Shown here: positions 1 through 62,383 of the stretch, in pieces
How the letters are laid out: each line of letters begins with the position of its first letter
Position numbering within the stretch: position 1 is the stretch's first letter
IMG/VR virus record: IMGVR_UViG_3300050011_000047
Location: 14,132-78,131 of that record
DNA from: a virus
Lineage: Duplodnaviria > Heunggongvirae > Uroviricota > Caudoviricetes
Length of the DNA: 64,000 nt
Strand: one strand, 5' to 3'
Program-made: the position numbers and the translations under genes
The notes under the pieces: generated by a model
The model's database searches: none
Told to the model about the DNA's origin: nothing
The model's input: the letters and a program-made list of their open reading frames with translations, nothing else

Positions 1-419
1 GCGCCGTCCACAACGCGCTCGACGTGCTGCTCGCGCCGTCGATGGGCGAAGGGTTCGGCGTCCCGCTCATCGAGGCGCAGGCGTGCGGCACCCCCGCCAT
101 CGTGACGAACTTCTCGGCCATGCCCGAGGTCGCACCCGCGAGCGCGGGCAACTGGAACGTGGACGGGCAGTTGCAGTGGACGGGATTCAAGTCCTGGCAG
201 ATGACACCGAACATCGAGCACATCGTGGCCTCGCTCGAAGAAGCGTATGCCGACTCCGCCGAGCAGCGGCAGGCGCGGCGTGTGTCTACCTTCCAGCACG
301 CACACAGGTACTACCGCTCGGACGACATCGTGCGTGACCACTGGAAACCCACTATCGAGGCCGCGCGTGCGGAGCGCGCGTGGCGCGGGCAGAAGATGCG
401 GAGGTTCGCTGATGCTTAA
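1..419 (+). CDS. glycosyltransferase family 1 (GT4-like), C-terminal part; 5' end lies upstream of the window
   Basis: Frame starts at nt 3. Translation ...LLAPSMGEGFGVPLIEAQACGTPAIVTNFSAMPEV matches the GT1/GT4 C-terminal EX7E-type motif. Stop TAA at 417-419. Confidence 0.6.
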   Translation, partial: AVHNALDVLLAPSMGEGFGVPLIEAQACGTPAIVTNFSAMPEVAPASAGNWNVDGQLQWTGFKSWQMTPNIEHIVASLEEAYADSAEQRQARRVSTFQHAHRYYRSDDIVRDHWKPTIEAARAERAWRGQKMRRFADA

Positions 420-864
420 AGTTTGTGCCGCTCAGGGATGTATGAACACCTTTCAACCATTCAGACGAAAAATATACTGCACCCCTGAATGTAGAGGACG
501 TGAATCAAGACTCCGCAATGCAACGTACATCCGTGAGTGGAAGCGAGACAATCGCCCTAGGTTAAATACCTATGCTCGCACATGGGGTTCCAAAAATCGA
601 GACAAACTTTCACAGTACAATCGGAATGCTCGTTTCCGCCGATATGGGATAACGCACGAGCAGTTTCTTGAGATGCTTGATGCGCAGCAAGGATTGTGTG
701 CTATCTGCCATACAAATGATACAGGGAAGAAGGATTGGAGGATAGACCACGATCATCAAACAGGAGCGATTCGTGGTCTATTGTGTGGGCCTTGTAATGG
801 TGCACTTGGGTTTCTAGAGCGAAGCGGCTGGTTAATCTCGGCGCAGAGGTACTTAGATGGGTAG
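412..864 (+). CDS. HNH (endonuclease VII-like) homing endonuclease in a low-GC island
   Basis: ATG 412 overlaps the upstream stop (ATGCTTAA). Translation has CxxC plus ...CAICHTNDTGKKDWRIDHDHQTGAIRGLLCGPCNGALG (H-N-H, Zn-binding Cys pairs). GC content drops sharply over 420-900. Confidence 0.6.
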   Translation: MLKVCAAQGCMNTFQPFRRKIYCTPECRGRESRLRNATYIREWKRDNRPRLNTYARTWGSKNRDKLSQYNRNARFRRYGITHEQFLEMLDAQQGLCAICHTNDTGKKDWRIDHDHQTGAIRGLLCGPCNGALGFLERSGWLISAQRYLDG

Positions 865-1882
865 GGTGCTTCTTTGTCTCGCACATTCAATAGAAGAACA
901 TGACCAACTCCGCCTCCTTCATGGGCTCGGTTACGATGTCGCCTCGCTCGGCGGCTACATTGATCCACGAGTCCCGCATGATGACAAACGCCCGGCACTC
1001 GACATCCCGCAAGTCGATGTCGTGCGCGAGTCCGTCGATGCGCTCGGCGTCGATGACAATATCGGCGCGGCGCAGGCGCACATCCCGGAGCCGATCCTCG
1101 AATGGCTCGGTGCCGACGGCATCATCATCTACCACCACTACCTCGAACGACTGTTCGCGCAGTGGCCGCACTTGGGCGATTGGCGCTCGGGCGGCGGGCG
1201 TGTCGTGTGGCGTACCGTCGGGCAGTCCGTCGAACCAAACGAGCGGCGAGCCAAGCCATTCGTCCATGACGGGCTAGAAGTTGTCCGCTACTCCCCGAAG
1301 GAGCGGAACATCCCCTCGTACTCCGGCGAGTCCGCGCTCATCCGCTTCTACAAAGACCCCGAGGAGTGGACGGGGTGGACGGGTACCGCCGAGGGTGTAA
1401 TCAACTTCACGCAGGACATGCTTGCGCGCGAGTCCTTCTGCAACTACGGGTTTTGGAAGACGGCGACGGCGGCGCTCCCGGCGAAGGTTCTTGGGCCGGG
1501 CTCCGAGCAGATTGGTGGGCCGGGCAAGGTGAGCGAACCCGAGATGCAGTCGTGGCTACGGCAGGCGCGGTGCTACCTCTACACCGGCACGCAGCCTGCC
1601 TCGTACACGCTCGGCCTGCTCGAAGCGATGATGACCGGCTGCCCCGTCGTGAGCATCGGCCCCAAGTGGATGACGCACTTCCCCTACGGGCCTGACATGT
1701 TCGAGGGCCACGAACTCGCGGGCCTATGGGACGAGAGCCCGACGAATGCTCGCAGCATGCTGCGCGCGCTCCTCGAAGATCACGACCTTGCGCGCGAAGT
1801 CTCCGAGCGGCAGCAGTCACGCACACGCGCCGAGTTCGGCATGGAGCCGGTCGGACGCGCGTGGGCGGCGTTCCTCGGTTGA
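857..1882 (+). CDS. glycosyltransferase family 1
   Basis: 341 aa. C-terminal ...QPASYTLGLLEAMMTGCPVVSIGP... is typical of GT1/GT4 nucleotide-sugar binding. ATG 857 overlaps the HNH stop. Confidence 0.6.
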   Translation: MGRVLLCLAHSIEEHDQLRLLHGLGYDVASLGGYIDPRVPHDDKRPALDIPQVDVVRESVDALGVDDNIGAAQAHIPEPILEWLGADGIIIYHHYLERLFAQWPHLGDWRSGGGRVVWRTVGQSVEPNERRAKPFVHDGLEVVRYSPKERNIPSYSGESALIRFYKDPEEWTGWTGTAEGVINFTQDMLARESFCNYGFWKTATAALPAKVLGPGSEQIGGPGKVSEPEMQSWLRQARCYLYTGTQPASYTLGLLEAMMTGCPVVSIGPKWMTHFPYGPDMFEGHELAGLWDESPTNARSMLRALLEDHDLAREVSERQQSRTRAEFGMEPVGRAWAAFLG

Positions 1883-2565
1883 GCGTCGCGCCGTTCACCG
1901 AAGGCGGGCCACCGCCCGTCGGCCCGCCGCATGAACTGCGGGCTATCCCTCCCGCACCGTATCGCACGGAGCCCCTGTTCCCCGGCCCCGAGCGCGGGCA
2001 GAAGGCGCTCCTGCTCGTAGCGCACCCGGACGACGAGACGTTGTTCGCGGGCGGCGCGCTCCTGCATTACCCCGGTTGGGATTGGCATATCGTCTGCATG
2101 ACCGGCGTCGAGGAGCGGCGCACGCAGTTCGACGCAGCGATGCAGATGTACCGGGACTCGGGAGTCAACATCGCGTACACGCGCAACCACGAGTTCATCG
2201 ACCGAGCGCATCTCCCTGACCGGCGACTGTGGCTCGCGGCGCTCGCGAAGGAGAACTGCTCGTGGGACATCGTGCTCACGCACGGCGCGCGAGGCGAGTA
2301 CGGCCACCATCATCACATTTGGCTCAACCACATCGCGCATCTCCTCTACGAGAACGTGTGGGACTTCTTCAACCCCGGCGCGAAGGTTGAGCAGATAGTC
2401 AAGACGAACACTGTGATGGTGCCGACCGAGCGGCGCAAGTCCCTCATCTTTGACACGGCATACGCGGGGATTGCTCGTGGCATCCGCGAGAACGCGCCGT
2501 ACCTTGCACAGTCGCAGTTGTCGGGCGAGCCCGAGTTCTTCACGCAAGCGGTGCTCGGGTTGTGA
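1861..2565 (+). CDS. PIG-L/LmbE family N-acetylglucosaminyl deacetylase
   Basis: ALLLVAHPDDETLFAGGALL is the PIG-L signature, with His-rich motifs downstream (HGARGEYGHHHH). Start uncertain: GTG 1861 or TTG 1879 (TTGA overlap with the upstream stop). Confidence 0.6.
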   Translation: MGGVPRLSVAPFTEGGPPPVGPPHELRAIPPAPYRTEPLFPGPERGQKALLLVAHPDDETLFAGGALLHYPGWDWHIVCMTGVEERRTQFDAAMQMYRDSGVNIAYTRNHEFIDRAHLPDRRLWLAALAKENCSWDIVLTHGARGEYGHHHHIWLNHIAHLLYENVWDFFNPGAKVEQIVKTNTVMVPTERRKSLIFDTAYAGIARGIRENAPYLAQSQLSGEPEFFTQAVLGL

Positions 2566-3383
2566 GTCGCGCAGTCTTCCTCCCGACTCCGGGCGATCCG
2601 TTCCTTGTCTCGTATTGGCTGCGTGAGTATGCGGCATGGAAGCAGCACACGGATCGGCTCTACGTCCACATGTCATTCCCTCAGGAGCCGGAAGTAGCCG
2701 AACGTCTCCGCGCGGACATCGAGGCCGCAGGCGGCGTGTGTGTTCTTCCGCCCGACGTTGTGCCTCGCGAGCACGGTCAGGCGCTCAACGCGCTGCTCGA
2801 TCAGTGCGAGGAGGATGTCGTGTTCATGTGCGAGGACGACCTCTACATCCGCAATCCCGAGATGGTGCGTCGATACTTCGAGCGCGTCGAGGCGCAAAGC
2901 ACAGTGATCGGGCGTCCTCGTGGCTCGATGTCGATGGAGATTGTCAACGCGCTGCACAGTCAGTACCCACAGGGTGCGGGCCTGTGGCCGTTCTTATTCG
3001 CACGTGTCGAAGACCTCCGCCGACTGAGTGAGCCGTTCGGTGCTCGTTGGTGGGCCGCAGGCGAGACGATCAAGGGCGTGAACTACACGTGCATCGAGGC
3101 GTGCAATGCAGACACGTTCGGCGCGGCGTCGATGGAACTTCGCGGGCTTGTGCCGGTCGAGGTCGGAGAGAGCGAGCAGCGCGGTGGGTGGCATCACGCG
3201 GGCAGTCTCTCCTCCGGGCCGTACACAAAGGACTACGAGCATGTGCGCGCGGCGGCATTCTCGTGGCGAGTCCGAGTCGGGTGGTGGGAGAAGTTCCACG
3301 CCACATGGCCGGGAGGACTCCCGGAGCAGTACGCGGCCTACGGTCAGGCGCTCGACCGCCTCCATGCTACTCTCCGGTCATGA
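2562..3383 (+). CDS. hypothetical protein of the glycosylation cassette (possible DxD-type sugar transferase)
   Basis: GTG start overlaps the upstream TGA (GTGA). Translation has VVFMCEDDLYI (DxD-like). No firm family assignment. Confidence 0.4.
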   Translation: MSRAVFLPTPGDPFLVSYWLREYAAWKQHTDRLYVHMSFPQEPEVAERLRADIEAAGGVCVLPPDVVPREHGQALNALLDQCEEDVVFMCEDDLYIRNPEMVRRYFERVEAQSTVIGRPRGSMSMEIVNALHSQYPQGAGLWPFLFARVEDLRRLSEPFGARWWAAGETIKGVNYTCIEACNADTFGAASMELRGLVPVEVGESEQRGGWHHAGSLSSGPYTKDYEHVRAAAFSWRVRVGWWEKFHATWPGGLPEQYAAYGQALDRLHATLRS

Positions 3384-4021
3384 GCATCGTCACCTTCCCG
3401 TCCGGGCTCAAGTGGGATGTCCGGGATGACACGACTGATTGGAACACCGTCTACGCTGCCGGTGCCGACGGCGATGAGTACGGGCTCACCGGGGTGAATG
3501 TAAACGAGGCGCTCGTCTTCGACATTGGATCACACATCGGCGGGTGTGGGGTGTGGCTCGCTACTCGGAATGCGCGAGTCGTGTTCGTGGAGCCGATCCC
3601 GGAGAACGTCGAGGGGATCAGGCGCAACCTCTATCTCAACGGAGCGCATGCGCTTGGCATCGTGGAAGCAGCCGTCGGGACGGATCGCATCTGTCTCGGC
3701 CCGCCGGGAGATGCGCACGAGTACATCGGCGGTATGACCGGCGTATCTGACGACGACTCCCGTTGGCTCAATGTCGGGCGCACGACGTTCGACAAACTCG
3801 CTCAACGCTATGGCGTGCCGGACATCGTGAAGATCGACTGCGAGGGAGGCGAATGGGAAGTGCTGCGTAGCGTGAACATCCGCGCCGTTCCGCTCATCGT
3901 GGGCGAGTATCACCCGCTCGACGCCTATCGCGGCCCGAACATCGCGGTCATGCTTCCCGATCACGACGTGACCATCGGAGAGAGTCCCGATCTTGGCGGC
4001 TTCCGCGCGGTGCGCCGATGA
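3380..4021 (+). CDS. FkbM-family SAM-dependent methyltransferase
   Basis: ATGA overlap with the upstream gene. VFDIGSHIGGCGVWLA ... VKIDCEGGEWEVL are hallmark FkbM motifs. Confidence 0.6.
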   Translation: MSIVTFPSGLKWDVRDDTTDWNTVYAAGADGDEYGLTGVNVNEALVFDIGSHIGGCGVWLATRNARVVFVEPIPENVEGIRRNLYLNGAHALGIVEAAVGTDRICLGPPGDAHEYIGGMTGVSDDDSRWLNVGRTTFDKLAQRYGVPDIVKIDCEGGEWEVLRSVNIRAVPLIVGEYHPLDAYRGPNIAVMLPDHDVTIGESPDLGGFRAVRR

Positions 4022-4563
4022 GCCCGGAGGAGCAGATCGCTTACTTCAAGGTTGCGAAGACTTGTGAGGTTGACGGCGACATCGTAGAGTGCGGCGTCTA
4101 CAACGGGGACTCTCTTTGCGCGATCACGTCGGCGCTCCCCGGACGCAGGGTGTGGGCATACGACTCCTTCGAGGGCTTCCCGCCGGGCAATCCTCTGCAT
4201 GATGACCCCGTGGCGCTCGGGCTCGCGGGTGCGGTAGTCGGGCATCCGTCGCAGGTAGCGCGGCAACTCCACGGGCTCGCAGGAGAACTACAGATTCGCG
4301 CCGGGTGGTTCGCGGAGACGTTCCTACTTCCGCTACCCGAGCGCATCGCGATACTGAGTGTGGATTGCGACCTCTACGACTCCGTGCTCCTGACGCTGCG
4401 CACGATGGCAAACCGCGTCGTGTCCGGCGGCATCATCACCGTGGATGATTGGACGTGCTTCGAGGGTTGCCGTGCGGCGGTTTACGATTGGGTGATCGAA
4501 AGCGGCGAGCGTCCGCTACTCACGACGTTCGGTACCGGGCAAGCGTACTGGCGTGTGTCATGA
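4018..4563 (+). CDS. TylF/MycF-like (macrocin-O-methyltransferase family) O-methyltransferase
   Basis: 181 aa. ...DIVECGVYNGDSL... and ...LSVDCDLYDSV...GGIITVDDW resemble class I SAM O-MTs of the TylF family. ATGA translational coupling. Confidence 0.55.
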   Translation: MSPEEQIAYFKVAKTCEVDGDIVECGVYNGDSLCAITSALPGRRVWAYDSFEGFPPGNPLHDDPVALGLAGAVVGHPSQVARQLHGLAGELQIRAGWFAETFLLPLPERIAILSVDCDLYDSVLLTLRTMANRVVSGGIITVDDWTCFEGCRAAVYDWVIESGERPLLTTFGTGQAYWRVS

Positions 4564-5636
4564 ACGTTCTTGTGGACAGGCATCATGCCGGTCTTTTGTA
4601 CTCCCTTCAACTTCTCTTTGAGGATAGGTTGGGTCTAGACTTGTATATTCCGATTGGCTCGCAGTGGTGGGACTTGGGCGTGTGGCAGTTCGGCAAGGGC
4701 TACGGTGATGACCGGCTCGCGCAGCAGTATCTCTCGATCAACAATGCCGAACTCATCCTCGGGCTAGATGAGGCCACACCTGCACGCGAGGCCGTCGAGG
4801 GTGACGGGCATTACGTGCTGCGCGACATGGCCGAGTATCCCGAGCGGGACATCCGCTGCGTCACGATGGAGCAGTACAAGAACCTCGGAGAGTGGGCCTA
4901 CGTCGTCGCCACCGTGCCGGACAACGCGCCCGGCTTCGCAACACTCGCGAAGTACAGCGGCGCGAAGTTCGTCTATCAGGTGGGCAACCACAATCAGTTC
5001 ATCGACTGGACTCTTAACCCCATCGTGCTCTCGTCATCCGAGGCCGACCTCCGAGGCTCGACCAAGGCCGTAGCGATCCACCAAGAGTTCGAGAAGGACA
5101 CCGTGTTCCGCTACCGGCCCCCGTCGTACACGTACCAAGACCGCTGCTCGACCGGCTCGTTCGTCAACTGCTTCAACCGCATCCCACGCGAGTTGGGCTA
5201 CTGGACGGAGACGCGCGACATCCTCGACCCCTATGGGTGGTGCTTCGCGATGCACGGCTCCGACGGCGACGACGGCAAGGTGGGGCCGTGCGCGACGCTC
5301 GCGGACAAGATCGCAGAGTTCGGGTTCGGGTGGCACGACAAACCACACGGCGACGGCTTCGGCCACGTGATCCACTACCTCGCGTCCGTGGGCCGTCCGC
5401 TCGTCGGCAACGCGGCGAACTACAAGGGCCTGTTCGCGGAGGGCTTGTGGGAGGACGGCGTGACGGCAGTCGATACCGGCAAGCGCAGCCCGGCGGAGAC
5501 GGCGGAGATTCTCCGCGACATCGCGAGCGATCCCGACATCCACAACGAGATGTGTAAGGCCATCCGCGAGCGCGTGGACACCCTCTGCGACTTCGACGCC
5601 GAGGAACTCCTCGTGCGCGACGTGCTCGGGCTCTAA
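4560..5636 (+). CDS. hypothetical protein, last gene of the glycosylation cassette
   Basis: ATG 4560 (ATGA overlap). 358 aa. C-terminal ...GHVIHYLASVGRPLVGNAANYKGLF... is faintly GT-like. High GC3. Confidence 0.4.
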   Translation: MNVLVDRHHAGLLYSLQLLFEDRLGLDLYIPIGSQWWDLGVWQFGKGYGDDRLAQQYLSINNAELILGLDEATPAREAVEGDGHYVLRDMAEYPERDIRCVTMEQYKNLGEWAYVVATVPDNAPGFATLAKYSGAKFVYQVGNHNQFIDWTLNPIVLSSSEADLRGSTKAVAIHQEFEKDTVFRYRPPSYTYQDRCSTGSFVNCFNRIPRELGYWTETRDILDPYGWCFAMHGSDGDDGKVGPCATLADKIAEFGFGWHDKPHGDGFGHVIHYLASVGRPLVGNAANYKGLFAEGLWEDGVTAVDTGKRSPAETAEILRDIASDPDIHNEMCKAIRERVDTLCDFDAEELLVRDVLGL

Positions 5637-5687
5637 TCCCTCGAACGAGGGAGAGACAACTCCCGGCTCCTGCCCGATACTGAGGGC
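5637..5687 (+). promoter_or_regulatory. palindrome TCCCTCG-AA-CGAGGGA (5637-5652), then -10-like GATACT (5676-5681) 6 nt before ATG 5688: probable leaderless promoter with an operator
   Basis: The same architecture is found in reverse orientation at 30949-30998 (palindrome, 22-23 nt, GATACT, 6 nt, ATGGAC). Confidence 0.4.
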
Positions 5688-5867
5688 ATGGACAACTTCG
5701 ATACACCCGAGAGCGCGTGGGATTCCGAGTCACGGCGCTCACCCTTCTGCACCGTGTGGTCACCCGAGCAGGACGACGACGCCGAGTGGCAGCGCAACTA
5801 CGACAAGGCGATGTCGATATGGGGTCAGGAAGACCTCGCAGACGAGTACGCGGACGCGAGGGCATAA
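5688..5867 (+). CDS. small acidic hypothetical protein (59 aa)
   Basis: MDNFDTPESAWDSESRR... High GC3. TAATG overlap with the next gene. Below the ORF-track size cutoff. Confidence 0.35.
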   Translation: MDNFDTPESAWDSESRRSPFCTVWSPEQDDDAEWQRNYDKAMSIWGQEDLADEYADARA

Positions 5868-6076
5868 TGATCGAGGTCAAGGTTTACGCGGGCGCGGCAC
5901 TGCTCTCGCAGGTCTTCGACATCGAAGACCCCGAGACGGCAGTGTTCGCGGCGCAGACGATGTGGGACGACGCGCTCCGCGCGACGTGCTGCCAGGGCTA
6001 CGAGAAGACGATGCGTGCGACGTTCGCAGTGGACGGCGCTCTCGTGCGGATGATCGAAGGGCGGCGTCCCCGATGA
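5867..6076 (+). CDS. hypothetical protein
   Basis: MIEVKVYAGAALLSQVFDIEDPETAVFAAQTMWDDALRATCCQGYEK... Translationally coupled to its neighbours. Confidence 0.4.
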   Translation: MIEVKVYAGAALLSQVFDIEDPETAVFAAQTMWDDALRATCCQGYEKTMRATFAVDGALVRMIEGRRPR

Positions 6077-10089: not shown

Positions 10090-10674
10090 ATGGCAAACAC
10101 TCAGCCTTACGAGATTCTCGCAGGGCCGCTCTCGGTCTACTTCGCGCCGACGGAGACTCCGTTCCCGGCGATCACGGACACGGACGAGACGATCACGGAC
10201 GGCGGCACTTGGACGCCCATCGGATTCACGGAGGGCGGCATCAAGGTGGCGCACCCGCAGACGGTTGTCGAACTCCGCGCCGATCAGGTGACCGGCGTCA
10301 TCAAGGCCGTGCGCTCCGAGGAGGGTCTCGAAATCACGTTCGACATCGCCTCCTTGACTTTGGAGAATTACGCGCTCGCGCTGAATCAGGCGATCACCGG
10401 CCCCGGCACGGGTGCAGGCAAGAAGTACGTCAAGTTGTATAGGGGTGGATTTCAGGTTGAAACTTTCAGTCTCCTGTGTCGTCAGGGCCATCTTTCACCC
10501 TACGGTGATAAGCCCCTGAGTTTCGAGGTTCCGGTTGTCTTCGAGGCAGGCTCGCCGGAAGATACCCATTCGAAAGACAATAAAGCAGTGCTGGCCGTGT
10601 CACTTCACGCGATGGTTGACCCCAACCGGGCCGACGATTCTGAGTCCTTCGGTCGAGTCAACGCAGGCGACTGA
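10090..10674 (+). CDS. major tail protein
   Basis: 194 aa, directly upstream of the tail assembly chaperone/tape measure genes. The 3' portion (from ~10435) has markedly lower GC. Confidence 0.5.
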   Translation: MANTQPYEILAGPLSVYFAPTETPFPAITDTDETITDGGTWTPIGFTEGGIKVAHPQTVVELRADQVTGVIKAVRSEEGLEITFDIASLTLENYALALNQAITGPGTGAGKKYVKLYRGGFQVETFSLLCRQGHLSPYGDKPLSFEVPVVFEAGSPEDTHSKDNKAVLAVSLHAMVDPNRADDSESFGRVNAGD

Positions 10675-15300: not shown

Positions 15301-16482
15301 GTGAGCCTGTACGCGCCCGTAGATTGGCGGTTCGTAATCCTAGCCCCTGTGGGCGTCGCACGCGCGTGGAAGAAGATCGCGATACTGACGCACGTCGCGC
15401 AGGATGTCGAGTTGCTCTACCAACTCAACCGCTCGACCATGCTCACGTTCTCCGTGCCGTCGGACAACCCGCTCGTCAACATCCTGCACACGGATGGACT
15501 GCCGTTCCTCTCCGTCGGCCCGCGCTGGATTCTCGGGTGGCGTAAGGCCCCGGCCACACTTGAACCGACTCCGGGGCAGTGGGTGTTGCAGTACGCCGGG
15601 CGCGTGTGGACGTTGCAGGACACGGGCGACGGCGACAACTGCCGCACGATGGTCACGTGCTTCGACACGCTCAAGCACTTGGAGAAGCGGATCGTTCGCG
15701 CTGCCGACGGCACGTTCCGTAAGCAGGTCGCATGGTGGGCGACTCCGGGCTCGACCGTGGTCAAGAACATGATCGACCGCACGCAGTCGTTCGTCGGCAC
15801 GTGCCGTATCGACACGGGCGGGCATTGGGTTGACTCGGCGCTCATGGGCGCGATCAAGGTGGATCAGGCGATGGTCATGCCTACGCTCCTGCGCGTCACA
15901 GACACCGGCACGTTCGACCTCGATCCCGCACCCCTCGACGGCTCCGATGGTAACTTCATGCTGCTCGGCGGACGCCCGCGCCTCGGTGGCGACAAGCCCA
16001 ACGTCGTGATCGGGTACGCAGCGCCTCCGCGTCGCGCCGTCGGCTACGACCGCACGCAGTCGCTCGACAACCTCACGAACTCGGTGGACTTCTTCGGCAA
16101 GTCGAGTAAGGGGCGGCACGTGCACTCCGAAGACCTCGACTCGCAGGCGACCTTCGACGTCTTCGAGGATGTGTCCGTTATCCCGGACGTGCAGACGGAC
16201 GAACTCTTGCAGTTGCTCGCGGACGAGGAGGTCTTCCTTCGCAAGAGTCCGAACGACCTCATCTCGATCATCCCGACGCCGGAGGATTCGCCGCGCTTCT
16301 TCAACGAGTATTTCATCGGGGACACGATCAAGTTGAGCGCAGCGGTCAACCCGCTCCCCGTGACGCGGCAGGCGATCAACGGATTGCAGCGCGTCTACGG
16401 CGTGCGCCTCAAGGTGGACAACGAGTACGGTGAGGCGGTCACTGAGATGATCGCGAGCGCGAACGCGGAGTCTGCACTGTAA
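15301..16482 (+). CDS. minor tail protein (tip/Tal-like)
   Basis: 393 aa, follows the Dit-like gene. Confidence 0.4.
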
Positions 16483-19016
16483 TGGCGAAGCATCTCAAGC
16501 GCGAGACAGTACACACCCAACTCGGGGAAGGCGCGAAGGCGCAGAAGCGGCTTGAGCACCGTATCGACGGCGATTGGATTTACGTCGGCACGTACCCCAC
16601 CGATCCGAATACGAACCCGGACTCGCCTCCGTTCGAGAACGGGTGGAAGAACACGGACTCCGGCGTGCTGCCGATGCGCTTCCGTTGGCTGCTCTCCGGC
16701 GACATTGATATTGAATGGGACGTGACGAACGACATCCTGACCGGCGGTGCGGAGATTGGCACCGTGGTCTTCACGTTGCCCGTCGGCTACCGGCCCGACT
16801 TCGTGACCCCGCTCGTCGGCTCCTCGACGCTGCTCCTCATCCAACTTCTCGTCGCGCACCCGGACGGTACGGTCACGTTCGGTGGCGGCGGTTCGACCGG
16901 CCCCACAGGTGTCCCCGGTGCGACCGGCGGCACGGGGCCTCCGGGTACGACCGGCCCGAGCGGCGGAACAGGTGGGACGGGCGGTACCGGCGGAGTAGGC
17001 GCGAGCGGCACGAGCGGCGCGAGCGGGGCAGCCGGAGAGACGGGTGCGACCGGCCCCGCAGGAGGCCCCACAGGGCCGACCGGGCCTACTGGCCCCGCAG
17101 GAGGCCCGACTGGCCCCTCAGGGCCTACCGGCCCCACAGGGCCGACCGGCGCGACGGGCGGCTTGGGCTCGACCAACATCATCTTCAACGAGGTTCCCGC
17201 AGGCACCATCGACGGCTCGAACGACACGTTCACGTTGGCGAACGCTCCCGATCCTGCCGGACATCTCGCGCTCTACAAGAACGGGCTCCTCATGCAGCCC
17301 GGCGGTGTTGACTACACACTCACTAGCGATACCATCGTGTTCGCGACGGCGCAGATTCCGCTGACCGGAGAAGTGCTCGAAGCGATCTATCAGTACGGTG
17401 CAGGCCCCGCAGGTGCTACCGGCCCCGTAGGCGCAACTGGCGCGGGCGGAACTGGCACGACCGGCGGCACAGGTGGAACCGGAGGCACGGGCGGTGTTGG
17501 TGCAACCGGCGCGAGCGGTACCTTCGACTACTACACTGCCAACTTCGAGGGCGAGGAAGCCGTCACGTCTACGTCGTATGCGACGTACACAGGGGCTCCA
17601 TCACTGACCGGACTTGACGACGGCGATTGGTTCGTCATTTGGGGATGCGGCGGTAAAGGTGACGACAACGCGAACGGATCGGAACTCCGACTCGCGGTGC
17701 AAATCAACGGCGGCGGCGAGACGAACTACGTCGAGTCACAGGAGCAGTTGTACTACACCGGCATCGCGCGGCACGAGAAGGTCACACTCTCCGCAGGCGC
17801 AGGTGCCAACACTCTCGCGCTCGTTGCACTGACGACCATCGGCGGGCACACGAGCAAGGTGCGTGAGTCATGGATCGCAGCGTTCCGTGGCGGCGGCGTC
17901 GGCGGTACAGGAGGCACAGGCGGCACCGGCCCCTCAGGCGGGCCGACGGGCGCTACCGGGCCGACTGGCCCGACTGGCCCCTCGGGCGGGCCTACCGGCC
18001 CGACGGGAGCCACCGGCCCGACGGGAGCCACTGGCGCTATCGGTGTGCGCGGCGTCGGCGCGATTGACGTGCAGGTGTTTACGACTGCGACTGCGGGCGC
18101 AACTGGCGCGGGCGCGACATGGACGGCAGCAGCGGGCACGACGTGGGCCGAGGTCTTCCTCATCGGAGGCGGCGGAGGCGGTGGCGGCGGCGCAGGCGGT
18201 GCGAACGGCGGCAGCGGCAACGGCGGCGGTGGCGGCGGTGGCGGCGGCGAAGACGAGCAGATGTTTCGCATCTCCGACATCGGGACTTCGATCACGGTCA
18301 AGGTTGGCGCGGGCGGCGCATCCGGTGCGGCTCAGACGACGGCGAACACGACCGGCAACCCCGGTACAGCAGGAACCGAATCAAGTTTCGGCTCGCTCCT
18401 CAAGGCGGGCGGCGGCGGGCATGGGGCAGGTGGCGTAATCTTTGGTGCAACCGGCCAAGCACCCGCAGGTGGTGGCGGCGGCGCGGGCTTGTTGCTTACA
18501 ACGAACGATGCGACTGTATCGAGCACGGGCGGCGGCGCAGCATTCACGGACTACAAGGGCGGTAACGCAGGCACCCCCGGTGTGCACGGCGGCGGCGGCG
18601 GCGGGCTCGGGACTGACGACTCCCATGCGAGCCCCGGAGACGGCGGCGGCTCTCGGTATGGCGGCGGCGGAGGCGGCGGCGGCGGTGTGGGTACGAACAA
18701 CACGGCGGGCTCGGGCGGGGGCGGTGGCTTGGAGACGGGCGGCGGCGGCTCTAACGGCGGTATCCCTCCCCTCAACGGGACGCCTCCGGCGGGCAATGTC
18801 GGCGGCTCCGTCGGCCTACGCGGTGCGGGCGGTGGCGGTGGCGCGGGTGCTCGGCATAACGACGGCATCGCGACGGCAGGCGCGGTGGGCGGAGCCGGAG
18901 CCAACTACGGCGGCGGCGGTGGTGGCGGTGGCGGCGGCGGCGCGGGTGGCGGCGGCGGTCATGGTGGTGCGGGCGGCGCAGGTGCCGATGGCATCGTCGT
19001 GGTCGTGTCCTACTAG
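16482..19016 (+). CDS. collagen-like glycine-rich minor tail/fibre protein
   Basis: Long [26 protein letters not shown] Gly-X-Y arrays (~16900-17160, 17400-17520, 17900-18050). Poly-Gly tract [28 protein letters not shown] (~18160-18250). Gly-rich C-terminus. Confidence 0.6.
16900..17170 (+). repeat. nucleotide triplet-repeat array encoding collagen-like Gly-Pro-Thr repeats
   Basis: ggccccaca gggccgacc gggcctact ggccccgca... Periodic 9-nt units inside the fibre gene. Confidence 0.5.
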
Positions 19017-19033
19017 ATTGCTACGCTTACGCG

Positions 19034-20158
19034 ATGCGCCTGCATCTTGTCTCGCTCCCACACACTGAAACGACCTCGGAGTACATGACCTGCGCCTACA
19101 CGCAGAAGGTGGTCAAGTTCTCGAAGATGATGGTCGAACAGGGGCACGAGGTCTTCCTCTACGCGGGCACGCGCAACGAAGCCATCTGCTCGGAGCACAT
19201 CGAGGTCATCACCGAGGAGGAGCGGCTCGGGTGGTACGGCAAGTGGGACACGAACAAACCACCGGACGTGGATTGGTCACCCGATCAACTTCCATGGGGC
19301 GTCATGGCTGCACGCACTGTTCGCTCGATCAAGAAGCGCCGTGAACCGGGCGACATTCTCTGTATGGTCGCAGGTTGGTCGCAGCAGGCTATTTCCAAGG
19401 CGCTCCCGCAGTTGCTTCCTCTTGAGTGGGCTGTCGGCTACGAGGGCATCCACCACCAATACCGCGTGTTCGAGTCGTATGCGTGGATGCACCACGTCTA
19501 CGGACTCACCGGCAACAAGGGATGGGACTACAACACAATCGCCTATGACACGGTGATCCCCAACTTCTTCGACCCCGTGGACTTCCACACCGCGCCGGAC
19601 AAGGACGACTACCTCCTGTTCATCGGCAGGCTTGTTCGACGCAAGGGGCCAGACGCAGCCGCACGCATCGCTGCGCTCACAGGACGCAAACTCATCGTGG
19701 CCGGGCCGGGTGCGAAGGCGCTCATGCCGGGGCGGATCATTGCCGAGGATGTCGTCATCGAGGGCGATGTTGAGTACGTGGGTGCAGTAGGCGCGGACGA
19801 ACGTGCCGAACTCATGTCCCGCGCGGCAGCGTGCATTGTGCCGACGCTGTACGTCGAACCGTTCGGCGGCGTGGCGGTCGAGGCGATGATGTGCGGCACG
19901 CCCGTCGTCGCGACTGATTGGGGCGCGTTCCCGGAGACGGTGCAGACGGGCATCTCGGGCTACCGCTTCCGCACGCTGCGCGAGGGCGCACGCGCAGTCG
20001 AGAAGGCAGTCCTCCTCGATACACAGGCCGTGTCGGACTACGCCCATCGGCGGTACAGCATCGACGCCGTAGGCCCGATGTTCTCGGAGCACTTCGAGCG
20101 CCTTCAAGAACTGTGGGACGAAGGCGGGTGGTTCGCATCGCGGTCTTTGACGGACTGA
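19034..20158 (+). CDS. glycosyltransferase family 1 (GT4-like) embedded among tail-fibre genes
   Basis: ...FIGRLVRRKGPD...LIVAGPG...EPFGGVAVEAMMCGTPVVATDWGAFPETVQTGISGYRF is a GT4 C-terminal signature. Confidence 0.6.
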   Translation: MRLHLVSLPHTETTSEYMTCAYTQKVVKFSKMMVEQGHEVFLYAGTRNEAICSEHIEVITEEERLGWYGKWDTNKPPDVDWSPDQLPWGVMAARTVRSIKKRREPGDILCMVAGWSQQAISKALPQLLPLEWAVGYEGIHHQYRVFESYAWMHHVYGLTGNKGWDYNTIAYDTVIPNFFDPVDFHTAPDKDDYLLFIGRLVRRKGPDAAARIAALTGRKLIVAGPGAKALMPGRIIAEDVVIEGDVEYVGAVGADERAELMSRAAACIVPTLYVEPFGGVAVEAMMCGTPVVATDWGAFPETVQTGISGYRFRTLREGARAVEKAVLLDTQAVSDYAHRRYSIDAVGPMFSEHFERLQELWDEGGWFASRSLTD

Positions 20159-21624
20159 TTGATTGGTGGGCATTCGGTGACGCTGCCGACGTGCTCGCCG
20201 CTGCACCGGACAACGGAGGATTCCCCGGATCGGATGCGGTGTTCTCCGATAACATCGCTCGCTTCGGCCTGACCCCACACGACGGGCTCTACACGAACGG
20301 CGGGTTCGGGTACCAAGGCGATCAAATCATCGGTATCAATGATGTCGAGCCCGGAGCGCCGTGGGCCTGCCGGTACGACAAGAAGGCGCTCGTGCAGAAT
20401 CTTGCACCAACTGGCCCTGCGTGGGACTCCGCAATACACTACGTCTTTGGCGATCTTGTGACCTACCTCAGTATCGTCTATCGTTGCATCGCAGCGAACA
20501 CAAACGTTGTACCAACGAACGCGGCCTACTGGCGCAGGATGCCGAGCGCCGGAAGCATCGACCCCGCCTCAGGTTGGGGCGGATTCTCCGGCCTCGTTGA
20601 TACGACGACGCCGACGGAGTTCTCGTTCAACATTTGGGCGAAGCCTACACCGAACGGCTACTTCATATCGCGCTCGGGTGCATTGATGTTGACGTACCTC
20701 TGCGGTGATGTGCAAGCAACTCCGGGCTCGGAGCGCGGATGGGCGATCACTGCCAACTACACCGGCACACCGCTCGGTTTCAACCCCAATAGTGGGTTCT
20801 TCCAACTGCGCTCCAAGAGTGGTGCGACGATCATGCCGAACTTGAGTCTCGGCTCCTTTCGCTATCTCGGTGATGGTTCGACAGATTGGGTGATGCTGAC
20901 CATCACGTATGACAGTACGACGGTCAAGTGCTATCAGTCATTCACAGTCGCGGGCTTCGGCTTCGTCACCACGCTCACGGACTCGTTGGTGACGGACTTC
21001 CATATCAACTCGCAGATTTGCTTCGGAGCACGGAACAACACCGGGCCTGACGACGGCTTGTTCTCCTCGCCATTCAACGGCGCGTTCGATGAGGCGCTCA
21101 TGTGGAATCGCGCACTCACTGCCGATGAGGTCAACGCGATCCCTACGGCGTGCAACGGGAGCACGAAAGGTAAGGCCCGCTTCACCGCAGTGCAGCCCGA
21201 AACACACAAGTTGTTCACGCACGCGAAGGTGATGCGCGGGGCGCTCGGTACGACCGTCGCGTGGGATGTCGCGGGGCTCTACACCGAGCCCGGCGAGCCG
21301 GTGGGCAGCGCGGTCACGGGTGGCCTGTTCCAAACCGTGTGGTTCAAGTGGACGGCCCCGGCCTCCGGCCCGATCACGTTCATCACGGCGGACTCCTCCC
21401 CCGGCGATGTCTACTCGCAGTCCCCCGGCGAGGCATCGAAACTGTGGAGCACCCTCACCGTGTGGACGGGCACTTCGCTCGGGGGCCTCACCGAAATCGT
21501 CTCCGTGGATGACTCTGCCGTCCACCCGGCGACCTTCACGGCGGTGGCCGGGACGGAGTATCTGATTCAGATCGGAACGGGCAAGACCGGCGAGAACGGC
21601 AAGGCATCTCTCGCATGGGGCTAA
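20128..21624 (+). CDS. LamG/concanavalin-like lectin-fold minor tail protein
   Basis: Ser/Thr/Gly-rich beta-rich sequence typical of phage LamG-like minor tail proteins (inference). Start GTG 20128 is inferred and overlaps the GT 3' end. Confidence 0.4.
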   Translation: MVRIAVFDGLIDWWAFGDAADVLAAAPDNGGFPGSDAVFSDNIARFGLTPHDGLYTNGGFGYQGDQIIGINDVEPGAPWACRYDKKALVQNLAPTGPAWDSAIHYVFGDLVTYLSIVYRCIAANTNVVPTNAAYWRRMPSAGSIDPASGWGGFSGLVDTTTPTEFSFNIWAKPTPNGYFISRSGALMLTYLCGDVQATPGSERGWAITANYTGTPLGFNPNSGFFQLRSKSGATIMPNLSLGSFRYLGDGSTDWVMLTITYDSTTVKCYQSFTVAGFGFVTTLTDSLVTDFHINSQICFGARNNTGPDDGLFSSPFNGAFDEALMWNRALTADEVNAIPTACNGSTKGKARFTAVQPETHKLFTHAKVMRGALGTTVAWDVAGLYTEPGEPVGSAVTGGLFQTVWFKWTAPASGPITFITADSSPGDVYSQSPGEASKLWSTLTVWTGTSLGGLTEIVSVDDSAVHPATFTAVAGTEYLIQIGTGKTGENGKASLAWG

Positions 21625-22022: not shown

Positions 22023-22037
22023 TATACTCGTAGGGTG
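22023..22037 (+). promoter_or_regulatory. leaderless promoter: -10 TATACT, 6 nt, then GTG start of the portal gene
   Basis: ggTATACTcgtaggGTGgac has the same spacing and the same second codon (GAC) as the GATACT-N6-ATGGAC elements at 5676 and 30955. Confidence 0.35.
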
Positions 22038-23756
22038 GACGCACCCGATCCTAAGAAGGTACGCGCAGCCGTCGAAAAGGCCAAGGAGGGCTCCGACGGC
22101 AAGGTGCTCAAGGTACTCTACCTCGACGCGCAGGGTGAGCCCGCAGGCGATTGGGCCTCGACGCAGTTGCCCGAGAATCCGTGGGAGACTGTGCAGGCCA
22201 CCACGCAGTTGATCGAGCCCCCGTTCCCTATGGGGCAGTTGACCTTCCTCGCGGAGATGCACCCGGTGCATTCATCGGCGCTCGAACAGAAGGCAGCGGA
22301 CGTGTGCGGCAAGGGATGGGAATGGATCGCGGATGATCCCGATGTAGCAGACGAAGACCTCCGTGACGAGATGGAGGACTGGTTCCAGTCGCTTGCACCG
22401 GACGAGTTCGACATGCGCGAACTCGTCAACACCGCGTGGCTCGATGAGGAGACGACCGGGTGGGGACTGCTCGAATGCGCACGTGATCCGCAGGGAGTCG
22501 TGCAGCGGCTCTACCACGTGCCCGCGCACACGGTCAAGACGCACAAGAACGGGTTTGCTCTCTGCCAGGTGCGCGACTCGCGCAAGATGTGGTTCCGTAG
22601 GTGGGGCTCCACTGACATCGCCGGGAAGCCGGTCGAGGTCAACATGCGCAACGGCTCAATCACGAACGTGCCGGAGGATCAGCGCGCGAACGACCTTCTC
22701 GTCATCAAGCGCCCGTCGCGGCGATCCACGTGGTACGGCATCCCCGGCTACATCTCCGCAATCGGATGGATCACGCTCGCGCTCGCAGCACGCGATGACA
22801 ACCTGTACTTCTTCTCCAACCGCCGCGAGCCCCGTTGGGCGATCATCCTCACCGGTATGGCCGAGGATACCGAGATTGAGGAAGATCTCCGGCGCGCGTT
22901 CACCGTGGACATGAAGCAGCCGTACCGAAATGTCATGGTACCGGTCGCAGGCAAGGACGCGAAGGTCACCTTCCAAGAGTTGTCGTCCACGGCGAAGGAC
23001 GGCTCGTTCGGGAACCTCGGGGATCGCGCCGACAAGGCCATCATGGTCGCACACCGCGTGCCCGCCGAGCGTCTTGCGAACTCCCAGGTTGGCGCTCTCG
23101 GCGGCAACGTCGCGTCCGAGTCGAACCGCGTCTACAAGGAAGGCGTCGTCGCTCCCGCGCAGGAGGTTCTCAACTCGCGCCTCAATCGCTTCATCGCGGT
23201 CGAGTTTGCCAAGTACAAGAATCAGGAGTACAAGAAGGGCGACAAGTCGATGTGGCTTCTCAAGATGGATGACCTCGACATCCGCTCCGACCGCGAGGAC
23301 ATGGATCAGGCGCTCATCCTGTTCCACGGCGATATGATTACGCTCCGGGAAGCGCGTCATCGGCTCGGCCTCGGCCCACTCATGAAGCCGAAGCCGGTCG
23401 CACAGAAGAACCCGGATGGTACGCCGAAGACGAACCCTGACCCGATCACGGGTGAGCCGACGCAGGTCTTCGGCCCGCCGATCCCCGGCGTAGACGACGA
23501 GGAGAACCCGGCAGTGGACATCAACGGCAACCCCGTACCGCCTGAGGAAGTCGAGTCCGAGTTCAATGACATGTTGTTCTCGCAGTTGCCGGGCGCGAGC
23601 GGTCAGGCCGGGCTCCCCGGTGGCGCTCCGCCTACCGGCACCGGCAAGTTGACGCCGGAAGTGAACAAGGCGCTCGCGTCTGACGTGCGTGAACTGCTCC
23701 GTTCATCCTACGCGACACATGATCGTATCGCGCGGATGGCCGGAGATGACGGCTAG
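22035..23756 (+). CDS. portal protein
   Basis: 573 aa with an acidic C-terminus, immediately upstream of and overlapping a MuF-like gene (canonical portal-MuF pairing). Assignment is by size and context. Confidence 0.55.
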   Translation: MDAPDPKKVRAAVEKAKEGSDGKVLKVLYLDAQGEPAGDWASTQLPENPWETVQATTQLIEPPFPMGQLTFLAEMHPVHSSALEQKAADVCGKGWEWIADDPDVADEDLRDEMEDWFQSLAPDEFDMRELVNTAWLDEETTGWGLLECARDPQGVVQRLYHVPAHTVKTHKNGFALCQVRDSRKMWFRRWGSTDIAGKPVEVNMRNGSITNVPEDQRANDLLVIKRPSRRSTWYGIPGYISAIGWITLALAARDDNLYFFSNRREPRWAIILTGMAEDTEIEEDLRRAFTVDMKQPYRNVMVPVAGKDAKVTFQELSSTAKDGSFGNLGDRADKAIMVAHRVPAERLANSQVGALGGNVASESNRVYKEGVVAPAQEVLNSRLNRFIAVEFAKYKNQEYKKGDKSMWLLKMDDLDIRSDREDMDQALILFHGDMITLREARHRLGLGPLMKPKPVAQKNPDGTPKTNPDPITGEPTQVFGPPIPGVDDEENPAVDINGNPVPPEEVESEFNDMLFSQLPGASGQAGLPGGAPPTGTGKLTPEVNKALASDVRELLRSSYATHDRIARMAGDDG

Positions 23757-26700
23757 CGCACTAGACCTCTCCGCCGAGCATCTCCGTCAGGTCGAGGAGT
23801 TGTACCTTCGCATCCGCGAGGCGGGGATCGAAGCCGACGCAGGCAGTGATGATCTTCTCGCACTCTCGCGCGAGCACAAGCGGCGCGTGAAGCATCTGTT
23901 CCTCGCGGTCGAGAAGATGCGGCGCAGCCCGCACCGGCAGGCCGTCCATGAGAAGTCGCACGCGCAGCGGCTCGCGCTTGAGCAGGTGTGGACGCAGCGG
24001 CTCCGGCTCCTCTCCGACCATCTCGTCAACGGCTTCGACATCGACGGGGCCTACGAGGTAGCCCGGCGGGCGTGGGTCACCCCGGCGGACGAGCCCCACG
24101 ACGGCATCTACGTGGACGAGCATGCGCCGGGGCGGCTCAAGAAGGCTCTCACGCCGCCGAAGAAGTCTGACCTCTCGGTGGTCGAGCACTGGCCCGGCAA
24201 GCGCGGGACGGCGGCTCGACTTGCGCTCAAGAGGGCGGCGACTACCGAGGGCGTCGAGGCGCTCGTGCTCCGCGACTCGACCGGCAACCCGATTGCCGTC
24301 GCAGCGGTCAAGGCGAGCCCCGGCGACCTGCACGTGGAGTTCCTTGCATCCGAGCCCGGCAAGGGCGCACAGATGATGCAGGAGTTGGCGAAGGTGGCGA
24401 AGAAGACCGGCTCCGGGCTCTCCCTGTTCTCTGTCCCCGAGGCGGCGCAGTTCTACGATGGGATCGGGATGGCGGCAGGCGACCGCGCCGGGCAGTACAT
24501 CATGACCCCTGCGCAGACGGCGGCATTCGCGGTGACCGGCGGCATTCTTCCTCCGGCGGGCTCGAAGGCGGCGGGTATGACCAAAACCGAGCAGGCAGGT
24601 GTGCAGCAGTTGATGCTCAACGCGATCCAGTCGAGCGGGACACCTGGCAGCGCCGACGTGAAGCGGGCACTCTCATCGGTCGAGAATCAGGCAGCATGGG
24701 AGCGCGGCGCGGCGACGCAGTACCTCGGGCTCGCGGTGCAGACGGCGGAGCAGGCCGGGCAGGTGGCGCTCGATCATCTCGGACTCCACAAGACGTTCGA
24801 GTTCGCGAACCCGCAGACGATGGTGGGCGACGCGACGGCGGTGCGCGGCTCGAAGGTGATTCAGTCCATGTACGGGGCGCACGTCGATGCGCTTACGAAC
24901 ATCATCACGGACGCCACTAACCCGGCAGCGCCGCAAACCATCGCGCAAGTCAAGGCGTCGATCCGCGAGCAGTGGCCGAAGTTGCAGACGTATCAGGTCG
25001 AGCGGATCGCACGCACGGAGACGGCGGCGGTGTGGATGTCCACGAGCGCGAACGCCTACGCGGCGAACGGCATCTCGCAGTTCGAGACTATCGTCGCCAC
25101 CGGCCCAAGCATCGGCGTCGAGAGCGAAGACCCGTGCGACGAGTGTGTGGCGGCGGCAGAGGACGTGCACTCGCTCGATGACGACCTCCCGCCGTGGCAC
25201 CCAAATGCGGTGCTTGGAGGTTCTACGTTTCTATCTTACGGTGAACCGCTCGAAGCGGTTCGTGCGCGCTACCGTGGCCTTTCCGTACTCATCCGTGCGG
25301 GGGAGCACGTGCTTACCATCGGGCCTAACCACCCGGTGATGACCCGGCGCGGGATGGTGCCTGCAAATCAGATTCGCGAAGGTGACGAGTTGGTCTACGA
25401 CAGACGCGCTAATCGGCAGGAAGGCGCGATACGCGCTATCACATCGGACATCGAAGACGTGCCACTCGTCGAGGATGCGTTCACGGCGCTCCTGTCTACG
25501 GGCACGTATGCGACCGTTCCCGTGACCCCCGATGATCTCCACTGCGACGGGGTATTCTGCGAGGGCGAAGTCGATGTTGTAAGGCCCGACGGCAACCTGC
25601 TGGCGGTACTCGATCCCCGAGGCATCAAGGAGATGCGCGAAGTCGCGTTCGAGGCTTCCAGCGCCGAGTACCCTCAACTCTCTCGTTTTCGCGCGAGCCT
25701 CACGCCGAGAGAGCGGGTCGATGTTTCCACGTCGAGCCTCGTGGCAGGCCATGAATCGCTTAGGTTTATTCGAGTCATTCATGTGGACTTTGTGGACTTC
25801 GAGGGATGGGCGTTCGATTTCTCGGTACAGGGTGGGATGTATCTCAGTAATGGCTTTATGGTATCAAACTGTCGATGCGAGGCCGTGCCGGTACTGGAGG
25901 ACACGGACGGCACGCCATGGCTTCCGCCGGACGAACCGTGGACGGGCGGCGGCGACGGCTCCGGTGACATGGCACCGGGCACATTGTTCGAGCCGATGCC
26001 TCCACCGGAGCAACTCGCGATGGAGTTTGCGCCGGGCACGGTTGCGCCGTCGGCGGACATCTTGCTCAAAGGCTCGCTTGCGCAGCAGACGGTGCAGGAA
26101 GAACTCGGCAACATCGGGCGCGTGCATCAAATCCCCGATCACGTTGATGTGCCTTCGGTCAAGGGCGCGGTACACAACTCCTACTCACCCGATGAGAACC
26201 GCATCTTCCTCAATCCTCGTCCCGCCGAAGGCGAGTATCTCAAGGGCACGAGCGTTGTTCACGAGTACGGGCACTTCGTGCAAGAGCAGCGTGTCGTCTC
26301 AATGAACGATCAGATTGCCGTGTCCGATATGGCCGAGGCCACGCCGGAGTGGGCGTCGTTCGAGCGGTACGACCAACAACCGAACGAGTTGTTCTCCCGC
26401 GTGTATCAGCAGTGGATCGCAACCAAGAACGCGGACGAAGTGAAGTTGGCGTTCTACAAGGCGCAAGGCAAGTTTTGGTCACCCGAGTCGTTCAAGCCTC
26501 TCGGCGCGAAGATGGATGAGGTCTTCGCTCCGCTCATGAAGCCGAAGTTCCCGGACGGCTCACCCAAACTCCCGGAGAAGACGCCCGACGCAGCGCCCGC
26601 ACCGAAGGCGGAGGAGTTCCCCGCACCACTCGTGATCGACGCTGCGACGTGGACTGAGAAGAAGGTAATCGAGACACTCGCGCCGTTCGAGGGACGCACC

Positions 26701-32465: not shown

Positions 32466-32477
32466 ACTGCCTCCTTC

Positions 32478-34978: not shown

Positions 34979-35000
34979 GAGTCGCAGTGTAGCGGAAGTT

Positions 35001-35027
35001 GCGGCCCCCTGCAAGGCAAGGGGCCGC
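35001..35027. other. 8-bp GC hairpin GCGGCCCC...GGGGCCGC between the holin-like gene and ftsH
   Basis: Read directly. No U-tract follows. Confidence 0.3.
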
Positions 35028-35041
35028 GTGGCTCCGGCTGG

Positions 35042-35395: not shown

Positions 35396-35408
35396 GTGTG
35401 TCCTCCTC

Positions 35409-36462: not shown

Positions 36463-36478
36463 ACCCTCATTGTACGTG

Positions 36479-50278: not shown

Positions 50279-50455
50279 GTCTCCTCCTCAGAAGTTGGGC
50301 ACACCCTAGCACACGAATCACTCGCGCGGGGGATCAAGTTGTAGATGAGATTGGGGGGCGCTCCGGGAAGACCGGAAGGAGGATAACGGTTCTTCGCTTA
50401 TGGCGAAGCGCCCGCCCACAATCTCTAAGTCTGCCCGGAGTGTAGCAGGTTCGGG

Positions 50456-62275: not shown

Positions 62276-62383
62276 GGAAATCCTCCTTCTCGGGAGCCTT
62301 CATGGTAGCAAAGTTGTGCTACCGTTTGCTTGTAATCGACCGGCCTTCGTCGCCTCCACCACCCCGCGTTCTCTATCGCGCGC

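Follow-up and report, generated by a model that had tools for sequence, protein, structure and literature searches.

The first demonstration of glycosylated phage particles is said to date from 2023 and to concern a few mycobacteriophages, in which glycosylation reportedly lowers antibody recognition. The work is reportedly that of Freeman et al. 2023 (Cell Host Microbe) on mycobacteriophage virion glycosylation, with Che8 gp108-110, Corndog gp35-38 and Myrna as its cases. To our knowledge, the glycosylation of phage particles is regarded as largely confined to actinobacteriophages. The locus described here occupies positions 1-5636 of a 64,000-nucleotide (nt) stretch of the Caudoviricetes record IMGVR_UViG_3300050011_000047 (positions 14,132 to 78,131 of that record), and this whole stretch is called the window below. 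It is a cassette of eight consecutive plus-strand genes, seven of which encode sugar-handling enzymes. With a probability of roughly 60%, the cassette glycosylates one or more virion proteins with a methylated oligosaccharide. In Corndog, gp35-38 (an O-methyltransferase and glycosyltransferases, GTs) sit among the virion genes (PMC4351075). The glycosylation of capsid and tail tube in Che8, Corndog and Myrna is attributed to such enzymes in two further papers (PMC11600133, PMC12363180). The initial annotation had taken GTs with an O-methyltransferase among virion genes as a mark of virion glycosylation in some actinophages. The published Corndog arrangement agrees with this, and the TylF-family gene of the cassette is homologous to Corndog gp35.

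The window was located by exact-protein match on a 91,834-bp Logan contig, SRR30280121_16716 (L001), whose position 9145 is window position 1. The uncultured phage of about 92 kb is known here from this metagenome contig alone. The GC content of the window is 63%. Virion genes run on the plus strand from 1 to about 29.8 kb and are followed by a replication module on the minus strand. Window 1-6000 gave no nucleotide match by megablast against 50,697 GenBank phage records, the phage comparison set of this study. The cassette is composed of the following genes.

<1-419, plus strand: 3' end of GT_A (C-terminal 138 amino acids), glycosyltransferase by a Glycos_transf_1 match
412-864, plus strand: putative EndoVII/HNH homing endonuclease, by an Endonuclease_7 match
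857-1882, plus strand: GT_C, predicted divergent GT-B/GT4-like glycosyltransferase, by its family profile against the GT4 domain
1879-2565, plus strand: PIG-L/LmbE-family de-N-acetylase with a TTG start, by a Pfam PIG-L match
2562-3383, plus strand: GT_E, 273 amino acids, GTG start, GT-A-fold (GT2-like) glycosyltransferase by structure prediction
3380-4021, plus strand: FkbM-family S-adenosylmethionine (SAM)-dependent O-methyltransferase, by Methyltransf_21 and TIGR01444 matches
4018-4563, plus strand: TylF (macrocin O-methyltransferase)-family sugar O-methyltransferase, by a Pfam TylF match
4560-5636, plus strand: GT_H, 358 amino acids, GT-B-fold, GT4-like glycosyltransferase by structure prediction

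Five of these genes (GT_A, EndoVII/HNH, PIG-L, FkbM and TylF) were identified by matches above curated cutoffs, and the first one, GT_A, is cut by the window edge. The same-strand arrangement with overlapping genes, as had been described, was confirmed at all seven junctions. The overlaps are 8, 8, 4, 4, 4, 4 and 4 nt in gene order, and those of 4 nt are TTGA, GTGA and three times ATGA. The initial annotation spoke of an eight-gene glycan cassette. Eight genes are indeed present, but its inventory named seven, and the eighth is the putative homing endonuclease and no glycan enzyme. Two genes had been left as unknowns without function. Both are glycosyltransferases by predicted fold (GT_E and GT_H). 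Because structure prediction makes both of them GTs, the predicted enzyme set comprises four GTs, one deacetylase and two O-methyltransferases. At the gene level, the description of the cassette as more elaborate than the known cases therefore holds, with four GTs, PIG-L and two methyltransferase (MT) types.

The cassette is located between capsid and tail genes. Upstream of it, there are in this order a scaffold-like gene (DUF6582), the gene of the HK97-type major capsid protein and a gene for a protein of 98 amino acids (aa). The major capsid gene (L001 6704-7729) scored 28.3 bits against Phage_capsid (cutoff 24.2), and its product shares about 30% identity with capsid proteins annotated in isolates. 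No promoter-like site was found inside the cassette. A terminator-like hairpin with an 11-bp stem containing eight GC pairs (L001 8058-8083) separates the 98-aa gene from GT_A, some 1.1 kb upstream of window position 1, and is the only strong one found. It may attenuate transcription of the cassette and thereby lower enzyme expression relative to that of the capsid. All cassette proteins are soluble, with maximal Kyte-Doolittle values over 19 residues of 1.38 or less. Therefore, no flippase, polymerase or lipid-carrier GT is found among them by this hydrophobic-segment scan.

The same arrangement recurs in other phages. An exact-peptide scan of IMG/VR with GT_H alone found nothing, while the alignment-based scan found loci. 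A profile-guided scan brought in another 42 loci from IMG/VR and five contigs from metagenome-assembled genomes (MAGs), and 52 loci with a GT_H homologue were counted. GT_C lies upstream of GT_H in 45 of the 45 loci where the sequence covers it, with 42-69% identity across about 45 loci. A GT4 enzyme is present in 50/52 loci, FkbM homologues (28-47% identity) in 33/52 and GT_E in 15/52. PIG-L was found in six of the 52; in five it stands between GT_C and GT_H and the capsid family of the window is shared, and one is a weak match elsewhere in the locus. Another MT24/TylF-type methyltransferase occurs in 8/52 loci, and the TylF gene of the window itself occurs in none of the other 51. A capsid gene was found upstream in 24/34 loci and a tail-tube gene downstream in 30/37, counts that are limited by the capsid and tail-tube query families used. 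The loci with the GT_C-GT_H pair carry at least three different capsid families. In L002, whose capsid protein is 92% identical, the cassette consists only of GT_A, GT_C, PIG-L and GT_H. L006 (capsid 63% identical) has an extra epimerase/dehydratase, two GT_E paralogues and another methyltransferase. In contigs about 40 kb long whose capsids belong to other families, FkbM, GT_C, GT_H and GT4 are located between capsid and tail tube. The five MAG bins holding GT_H loci are Gaiellaceae, Acidimicrobiales, Nanopelagicales, Verrucomicrobiia and Acidobacteria. Three of the five are Actinomycetota, which hints at an actinomycetotal host. A tRNA scan found none and hence gave no host clue. As a separate observation, the capsid gene of L007 is seemingly split over three frames (L007 5399-6418), by an assembly error or a real frameshift.

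Full-length GT_A is 457 aa (L001 8190-9563), with its start 955 nt before the window and an acidic (EP)n stretch at its N-terminus. Its part within the window scored 40.8 bits against Pfam Glycos_transf_1 (PF00534; cutoff 26.4). The EX7E motif is present as EGFGVPLIE, and GT_A is classified by its sequence as a GT4-family (GT-B, retaining-type) glycosyltransferase. The nearest NCBIfam models are MshA, BshA and GlcNAc-PG synthase, all far under their cutoffs. The GT_C score against Pfam Glyco_trans_1_2 (24.6 bits, E 2.7e-5) is just under the cutoff of 25. Its family profile matches the GT4 C-terminal nucleotide-binding domain (hhalign 87.6%, E 3.5e-6) and also TarM (E 2.7e-4), and no PHROG, NCBIfam or GenBank-phage match was obtained for it. 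GT_E is predicted to adopt a GT-A fold, GT2-like, with a DXD-type acidic motif; its PDB sequence matches to LCAT were discarded as spurious. The predicted structure of GT_H is a GT4-like GT-B fold with two Rossmann domains, and the residues H269 and H272 are invariant. GT_H has no sequence match in Pfam, NCBIfam or PHROG, and PDB sequence searches of GT_H and GT_C gave no match or noise only. GT_C and GT_H were also considered as paralogues, which was rejected at an hhalign probability of just 7.7%. By tblastn, GT_C, GT_H, PIG-L and GT_E have no homologue in the GenBank phage records. The GT_H family, unannotated and seen only on phage-sized contigs, comprises 597 cluster representatives at 50% identity. 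Some of its members (among P0149, P0150, P0177 and P0245) are fused to an N-terminal GT-A-like domain. P0149 is a fusion of GT-A, GT_H and a C-terminal methyltransferase that resembles Che8 gp108, and P0245 carries a LAGLIDADG intein-like insert. Annotation pipelines call two of the four cassette GTs hypothetical, and two of the GT families are unannotated in Pfam, NCBIfam and PHROGs.

The PIG-L protein scored 35.6 bits against Pfam PIG-L (PF02585; cutoff 28.2) and contains the AHPDDE motif (VAHPDDETLF) and a His cluster, HHHH. The FkbM gene matched Methyltransf_21 (PF05050) with 39.4 bits (cutoff 22.7) and TIGR01444 with 69.2 bits (cutoff 37.7), and the TylF gene matched Pfam TylF (PF05711) with 82.7 bits (cutoff 23). 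In BLASTP, the TylF protein matched Che8 gp108 at the latter's C-terminal MT domain with E 1.4e-10, and Corndog gp35 with E 6.7e-10. A tblastn search of the GenBank phage set with the same protein hit 62 Mycobacterium records and one Nitrosopumilaceae record. The 62 are Che8-type GT/MT genes except for one M. avium record, in which the match falls on mtfB (35%, E 9e-20). Apart from the cassette, a second FkbM-family methyltransferase gene (L018 1536-2330), about 6-7 kb beyond window position 64000, encodes a protein 28% identical to the cassette copy. It adjoins a gene beyond the right window edge for a 572-aa protein without a Pfam match, and a lysozyme gene lies further on.

The position kept between capsid and tail genes across unrelated capsid families, the overlapped genes of a late operon, the soluble enzymes and the TylF link are the reasons why virion glycosylation is the preferred reading. 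The target is most likely the capsid or a protein associated with it; a tail-tube or collagen-like fibre target is less likely. In the proposed pathway, which would be cytoplasmic, phage-encoded and expressed with the late virion genes, GT_A, which is most similar to MshA, BshA and PimA, would put the first sugar on the acceptor, plausibly N-acetylglucosamine (GlcNAc) from host UDP-GlcNAc. PIG-L would then remove the N-acetyl group to leave glucosamine. Next, the paired GT_C and GT_H would extend the chain, with additions by GT_E as an accessory enzyme, and finally FkbM and TylF would O-methylate sugar hydroxyls. The order of steps, the sugars and the acceptor in this scheme are inferred. The phage might benefit through masked virion surfaces, stability or adhesion.

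The first two steps follow the logic of mycothiol (MshA/MshB), bacillithiol (BshA/BshB) and glycosylphosphatidylinositol (GPI; PIG-A/PIG-L) synthesis, where a GT4 enzyme transfers GlcNAc and a PIG-L-family enzyme de-N-acetylates it. A GT4 and PIG-L pair is likewise available here, and the best NCBIfam similarities point to these pathways. By this analogy, the pairing suggests GlcNAc transfer followed by de-N-acetylation, and the glycan most likely contains an amino sugar. On the other hand, the equivalog cutoffs are far from reached, the other pathway genes are absent and the acceptor is probably a protein. GT_A scored 49.2 bits against the MshA equivalog (cutoff 462.5) and PIG-L scored 26.4 bits against that of MshB (cutoff 224.35). 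Therefore, a mycothiol pathway as such was rejected. For the later steps, the GtfA/GtfB pair, which O-glycosylates serine-rich bacterial adhesins, offers a parallel, and GT_C and GT_H might likewise form an obligate heterocomplex.

The likeness to Che8 and Corndog lies in the combination of phage GTs with a sugar O-methyltransferase, placed with virion genes in Corndog and here. The TylF-type MT is homologous (E ~1e-10), GT-MT fusions are known in both groups, and GT_E, of GT-A fold by prediction, is marginally similar to Corndog gp36 (E 0.013). In contrast, the PIG-L deacetylase and the FkbM MT are extra here. The location also differs, being between capsid and tail here, in the portal-protease gap in Corndog and, in Che8, at the genome's right end. 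In Pontimonas phage phiPsal1 (MG835450) and Microcystis phage Mae-JY09 (PP395641), GT_A homologues (36-37% identity) directly follow the capsid gene. In both, the homologue stands between the major capsid and neck genes, and phiPsal1 has a SAM-dependent MT and a GT2 there as well. However, both phages are without GT_C, GT_H and PIG-L. Both genomes are uncharacterised, and the paper on phiPsal1 states that this phage "will not be further discussed" (PMC6106888). The autonomous capsid glycosylation of chloroviruses and other giant viruses (reviews PMC9614988, PMC4691112) is a functional likeness only, with eukaryotic hosts and unrelated capsids and enzymes. The cassette differs from Gtr-type lysogenic conversion in having no membrane-embedded component and in its place within a late operon. 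The literature was also searched for further phages with glycosylated capsids, and nothing of relevance came up. Streptomyces BE-cluster phages, which share the capsid family and a distant GT4, were rejected as a parallel; in Bmoc, the one checked, the GT lies outside the structural module.

Several points weigh against virion glycosylation. GT_A, GT_C and GT_H gave nothing better than E 0.68 against the GTs of Che8 and Corndog. GT_H is without a canonical EX7E motif and has D265 and Y273 at the motif positions, and because of this it could be a non-catalytic partner. In this phage and its relatives, the capsid, 98-aa and tail-tube proteins were searched for the Ser/Thr-rich C-terminal tracts that the initial annotation had proposed as acceptors, and none was found. 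In Che8 and Corndog, capsid and tail-tube subunits end in ...NKTGS (Che8 gp6), ...YSDGS (Che8 gp11), ...PLVGS (Corndog gp41) and ...IKGDS (Corndog gp49), a -GS/-DS ending that is a pattern read from these four sequences. In contrast, the capsid protein here ends in ...SVDVELD and the tail-tube candidate in ...RVNAGD, with no terminal Ser. A C-terminal Ser is also missing from the relatives' capsid and tail-tube subunits, except for a frameshifted capsid fragment of L007 ending in ...NVEPS. The cassette had been placed directly upstream of connector and tail genes. The tail genes are downstream as stated, but the presumed connector genes have no PHROG, Pfam or PDB match and bear that label by position only. 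Likewise by position only, the 747-aa gene is labelled a tape measure, with no family match in the window. Taken together, the proposed virion-glycosylation role is favoured by the GT/MT set in a late operon and the TylF homology, and is weakened by three GT-B enzymes unrelated to the mycobacteriophage GTs, the missing Ser/Thr tract and one gene that appears selfish.

Two other explanations direct the enzymes away from the virion. In DNA hypermodification, the GT-B enzymes would glycosylate hydroxymethylated bases, as T4 alpha/beta-GT do and in the style of 5-hydroxymethylcytosine glycans, and the other enzymes would tailor the sugar against host nucleases. The predicted fold would allow this, but it is very improbable. 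A non-exhaustive scan of window and flank proteins, among them those of the minus-strand replication module, covering the larger open reading frames (ORFs) only, found no cytosine-C5 MT, TET/5mYOX, dCMP/dUMP hydroxymethylase or thymidylate synthase, and only Dam, a deoxynucleoside monophosphate (dNMP) kinase and MazG appeared. Besides, all lineages examined have the cassette in the capsid-to-tail operon and outside the replication module, and TylF has as its relatives M. avium mtfB and the sugar O-MTs of phages that glycosylate their virions. A host-directed role, unlikely as well though less so, could be remodelling of a cell-wall glycan or glycolipid, or synthesis of a cytoplasmic methylated oligosaccharide or thiol-like metabolite (polymethylated polysaccharide, mycothiol-like) that aids infection or lysis. 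However, the low MshA/MshB equivalog scores given above speak against it, and MshC, MshD, a phosphatase partner, a membrane protein, a flippase and a polyprenyl-phosphate GT are absent from the cassette. Its genes overlap within a late structural operon without a promoter-like site of their own, and the only strong terminator-like hairpin is upstream of the cassette. The capsid-to-tail position, kept across unrelated phage lineages, would be hard to explain by such a role.

A third alternative keeps the virion as the target but moves the glycan from the capsid mainly to a collagen-like (GPT)n fibre. It is a variant of virion glycosylation, counted within the probability given for it, and has a small but real chance. 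The tail fibre gene (16482-19016) encodes 844 aa with long GPT/GPS/GAT repeats and Gly-rich tracts, and it is followed directly by another GT gene.

19034-20158, plus strand: separate third GT4 glycosyltransferase outside the cassette (phrog_3408, E 1.3e-66)

The product of this gene is 34-37% identical to GTs of cyanophages S-CAM7 and ACG-2014f, and the next gene encodes a 489-aa Laminin_G_3/CBM_5_12 protein. Upstream of the window, there is a gene for another protein with collagen repeats. Thr-O-glycosylated collagen-like proteins exist, such as Bacillus BclA, and offer an analogy. The fibre region (16482-21624) may thus hold a second glycosylation target together with a lectin-like protein, and its GT4 is possibly related to the cassette in function. 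However, the cassette itself is anchored beside the capsid gene in every lineage and away from the fibre genes.

Virion glycosylation of phages is known in concept, and most of the enzymes here are undescribed and come from a module that is widespread and has been seen in uncultured phages only. We tentatively propose, at somewhat less than even odds, that GT_C-GT_H with GT4 is a second, independently evolved GT-B-based machinery for virion glycosylation, widespread in uncultured phages and absent from cultured ones, which is upgraded here with PIG-L and two O-methyltransferases. If so, the glycan would bear a free amino sugar and methyl caps. We know of no report of this chemistry on phage particles. 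The roughly 50 related loci suggest a much broader virion-glycosylation tool-kit with different enzymes at a fixed capsid-to-tail position. If confirmed, the module would supply new protein-glycosylating enzymes, with GT_C, GT_H and GT4 as the minimal set, and a natural series of elaborations (GT_E, FkbM, TylF, PIG-L and epimerases) through which phage surface chemistry is diversified.

The putative endonuclease gene between GT_A and GT_C scored 72.5 bits against Pfam Endonuclease_7 (cutoff 23.6, E 2.8e-20) and is an endonuclease VII by PHROG. Its GC content is 47.5%, and 44% at third codon positions (GC3), against 63% and about 80% in its neighbours. It is missing from the relatives L002, L006 and L007, in which GT_A directly adjoins GT_C or other genes. 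Its low GC content, its lack in the closest relatives and its 8-nt overlaps with both neighbours mark the gene as a selfish homing-type insertion, a passenger outside the glycan chemistry. It had been overlooked by the public gene calls of the contig. Similar HNH genes were also seen near the cassette in L039 and L055.

On the 3' side of the cassette, four small ORFs precede three unannotated genes at the connector position. These are followed by an Ig-like tail-tube candidate (10090-10674), chaperone-like ORFs, the 747-aa gene, Dit and the collagen-like fibre. The gene at the tape-measure position in L007 matches PhageMin_Tail. PDB sequence searches of p216 and of the tail-tube candidate gave no match or noise only. 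The gene order is non-canonical in that the portal and a polyvalent protein of 2022 aa are encoded downstream of the tail genes (22035-29757). A comparable order is described for Rhodococcus cluster CB phages, whose tail genes come ahead of the portal and whose large terminase is remote from the remaining virion genes (PMC13313380). LPD1 and ADP-ribosyltransferase domains were seen in the polyvalent protein, together with a poly-Pro tract and possibly a Hint-like insert.

Some further genes were noticed outside the cassette. A sortase gene on the minus strand (L001 659-2322, about 7-8.5 kb upstream of window position 1) adjoins a gene for a 407-aa secreted protein with a signal peptide, collagen triple-helix repeats, GTN/GSN repeats and the C-terminus ...KKLAFTK. 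A search for the sortase motif (LPXTG) in the virion proteins gave nothing convincing. The minus strand at 49649-50287 and 61313-62299 encodes a dNMP kinase of T4 type and an N6-adenine methyltransferase of the Dam family. At 31521-37123 and 50456-51304, also on the minus strand, an SPFH/Band-7-like protein, a 674-aa FtsH-like AAA protease, a proteasome-subunit-like N-terminal nucleophile (Ntn) hydrolase and a sigma-70-type sigma factor are found. The Ntn hydrolase scored 26.3 bits against Pfam Proteasome, and the SPFH/Band-7, FtsH-like and sigma-70 labels come from reading of the sequence only.

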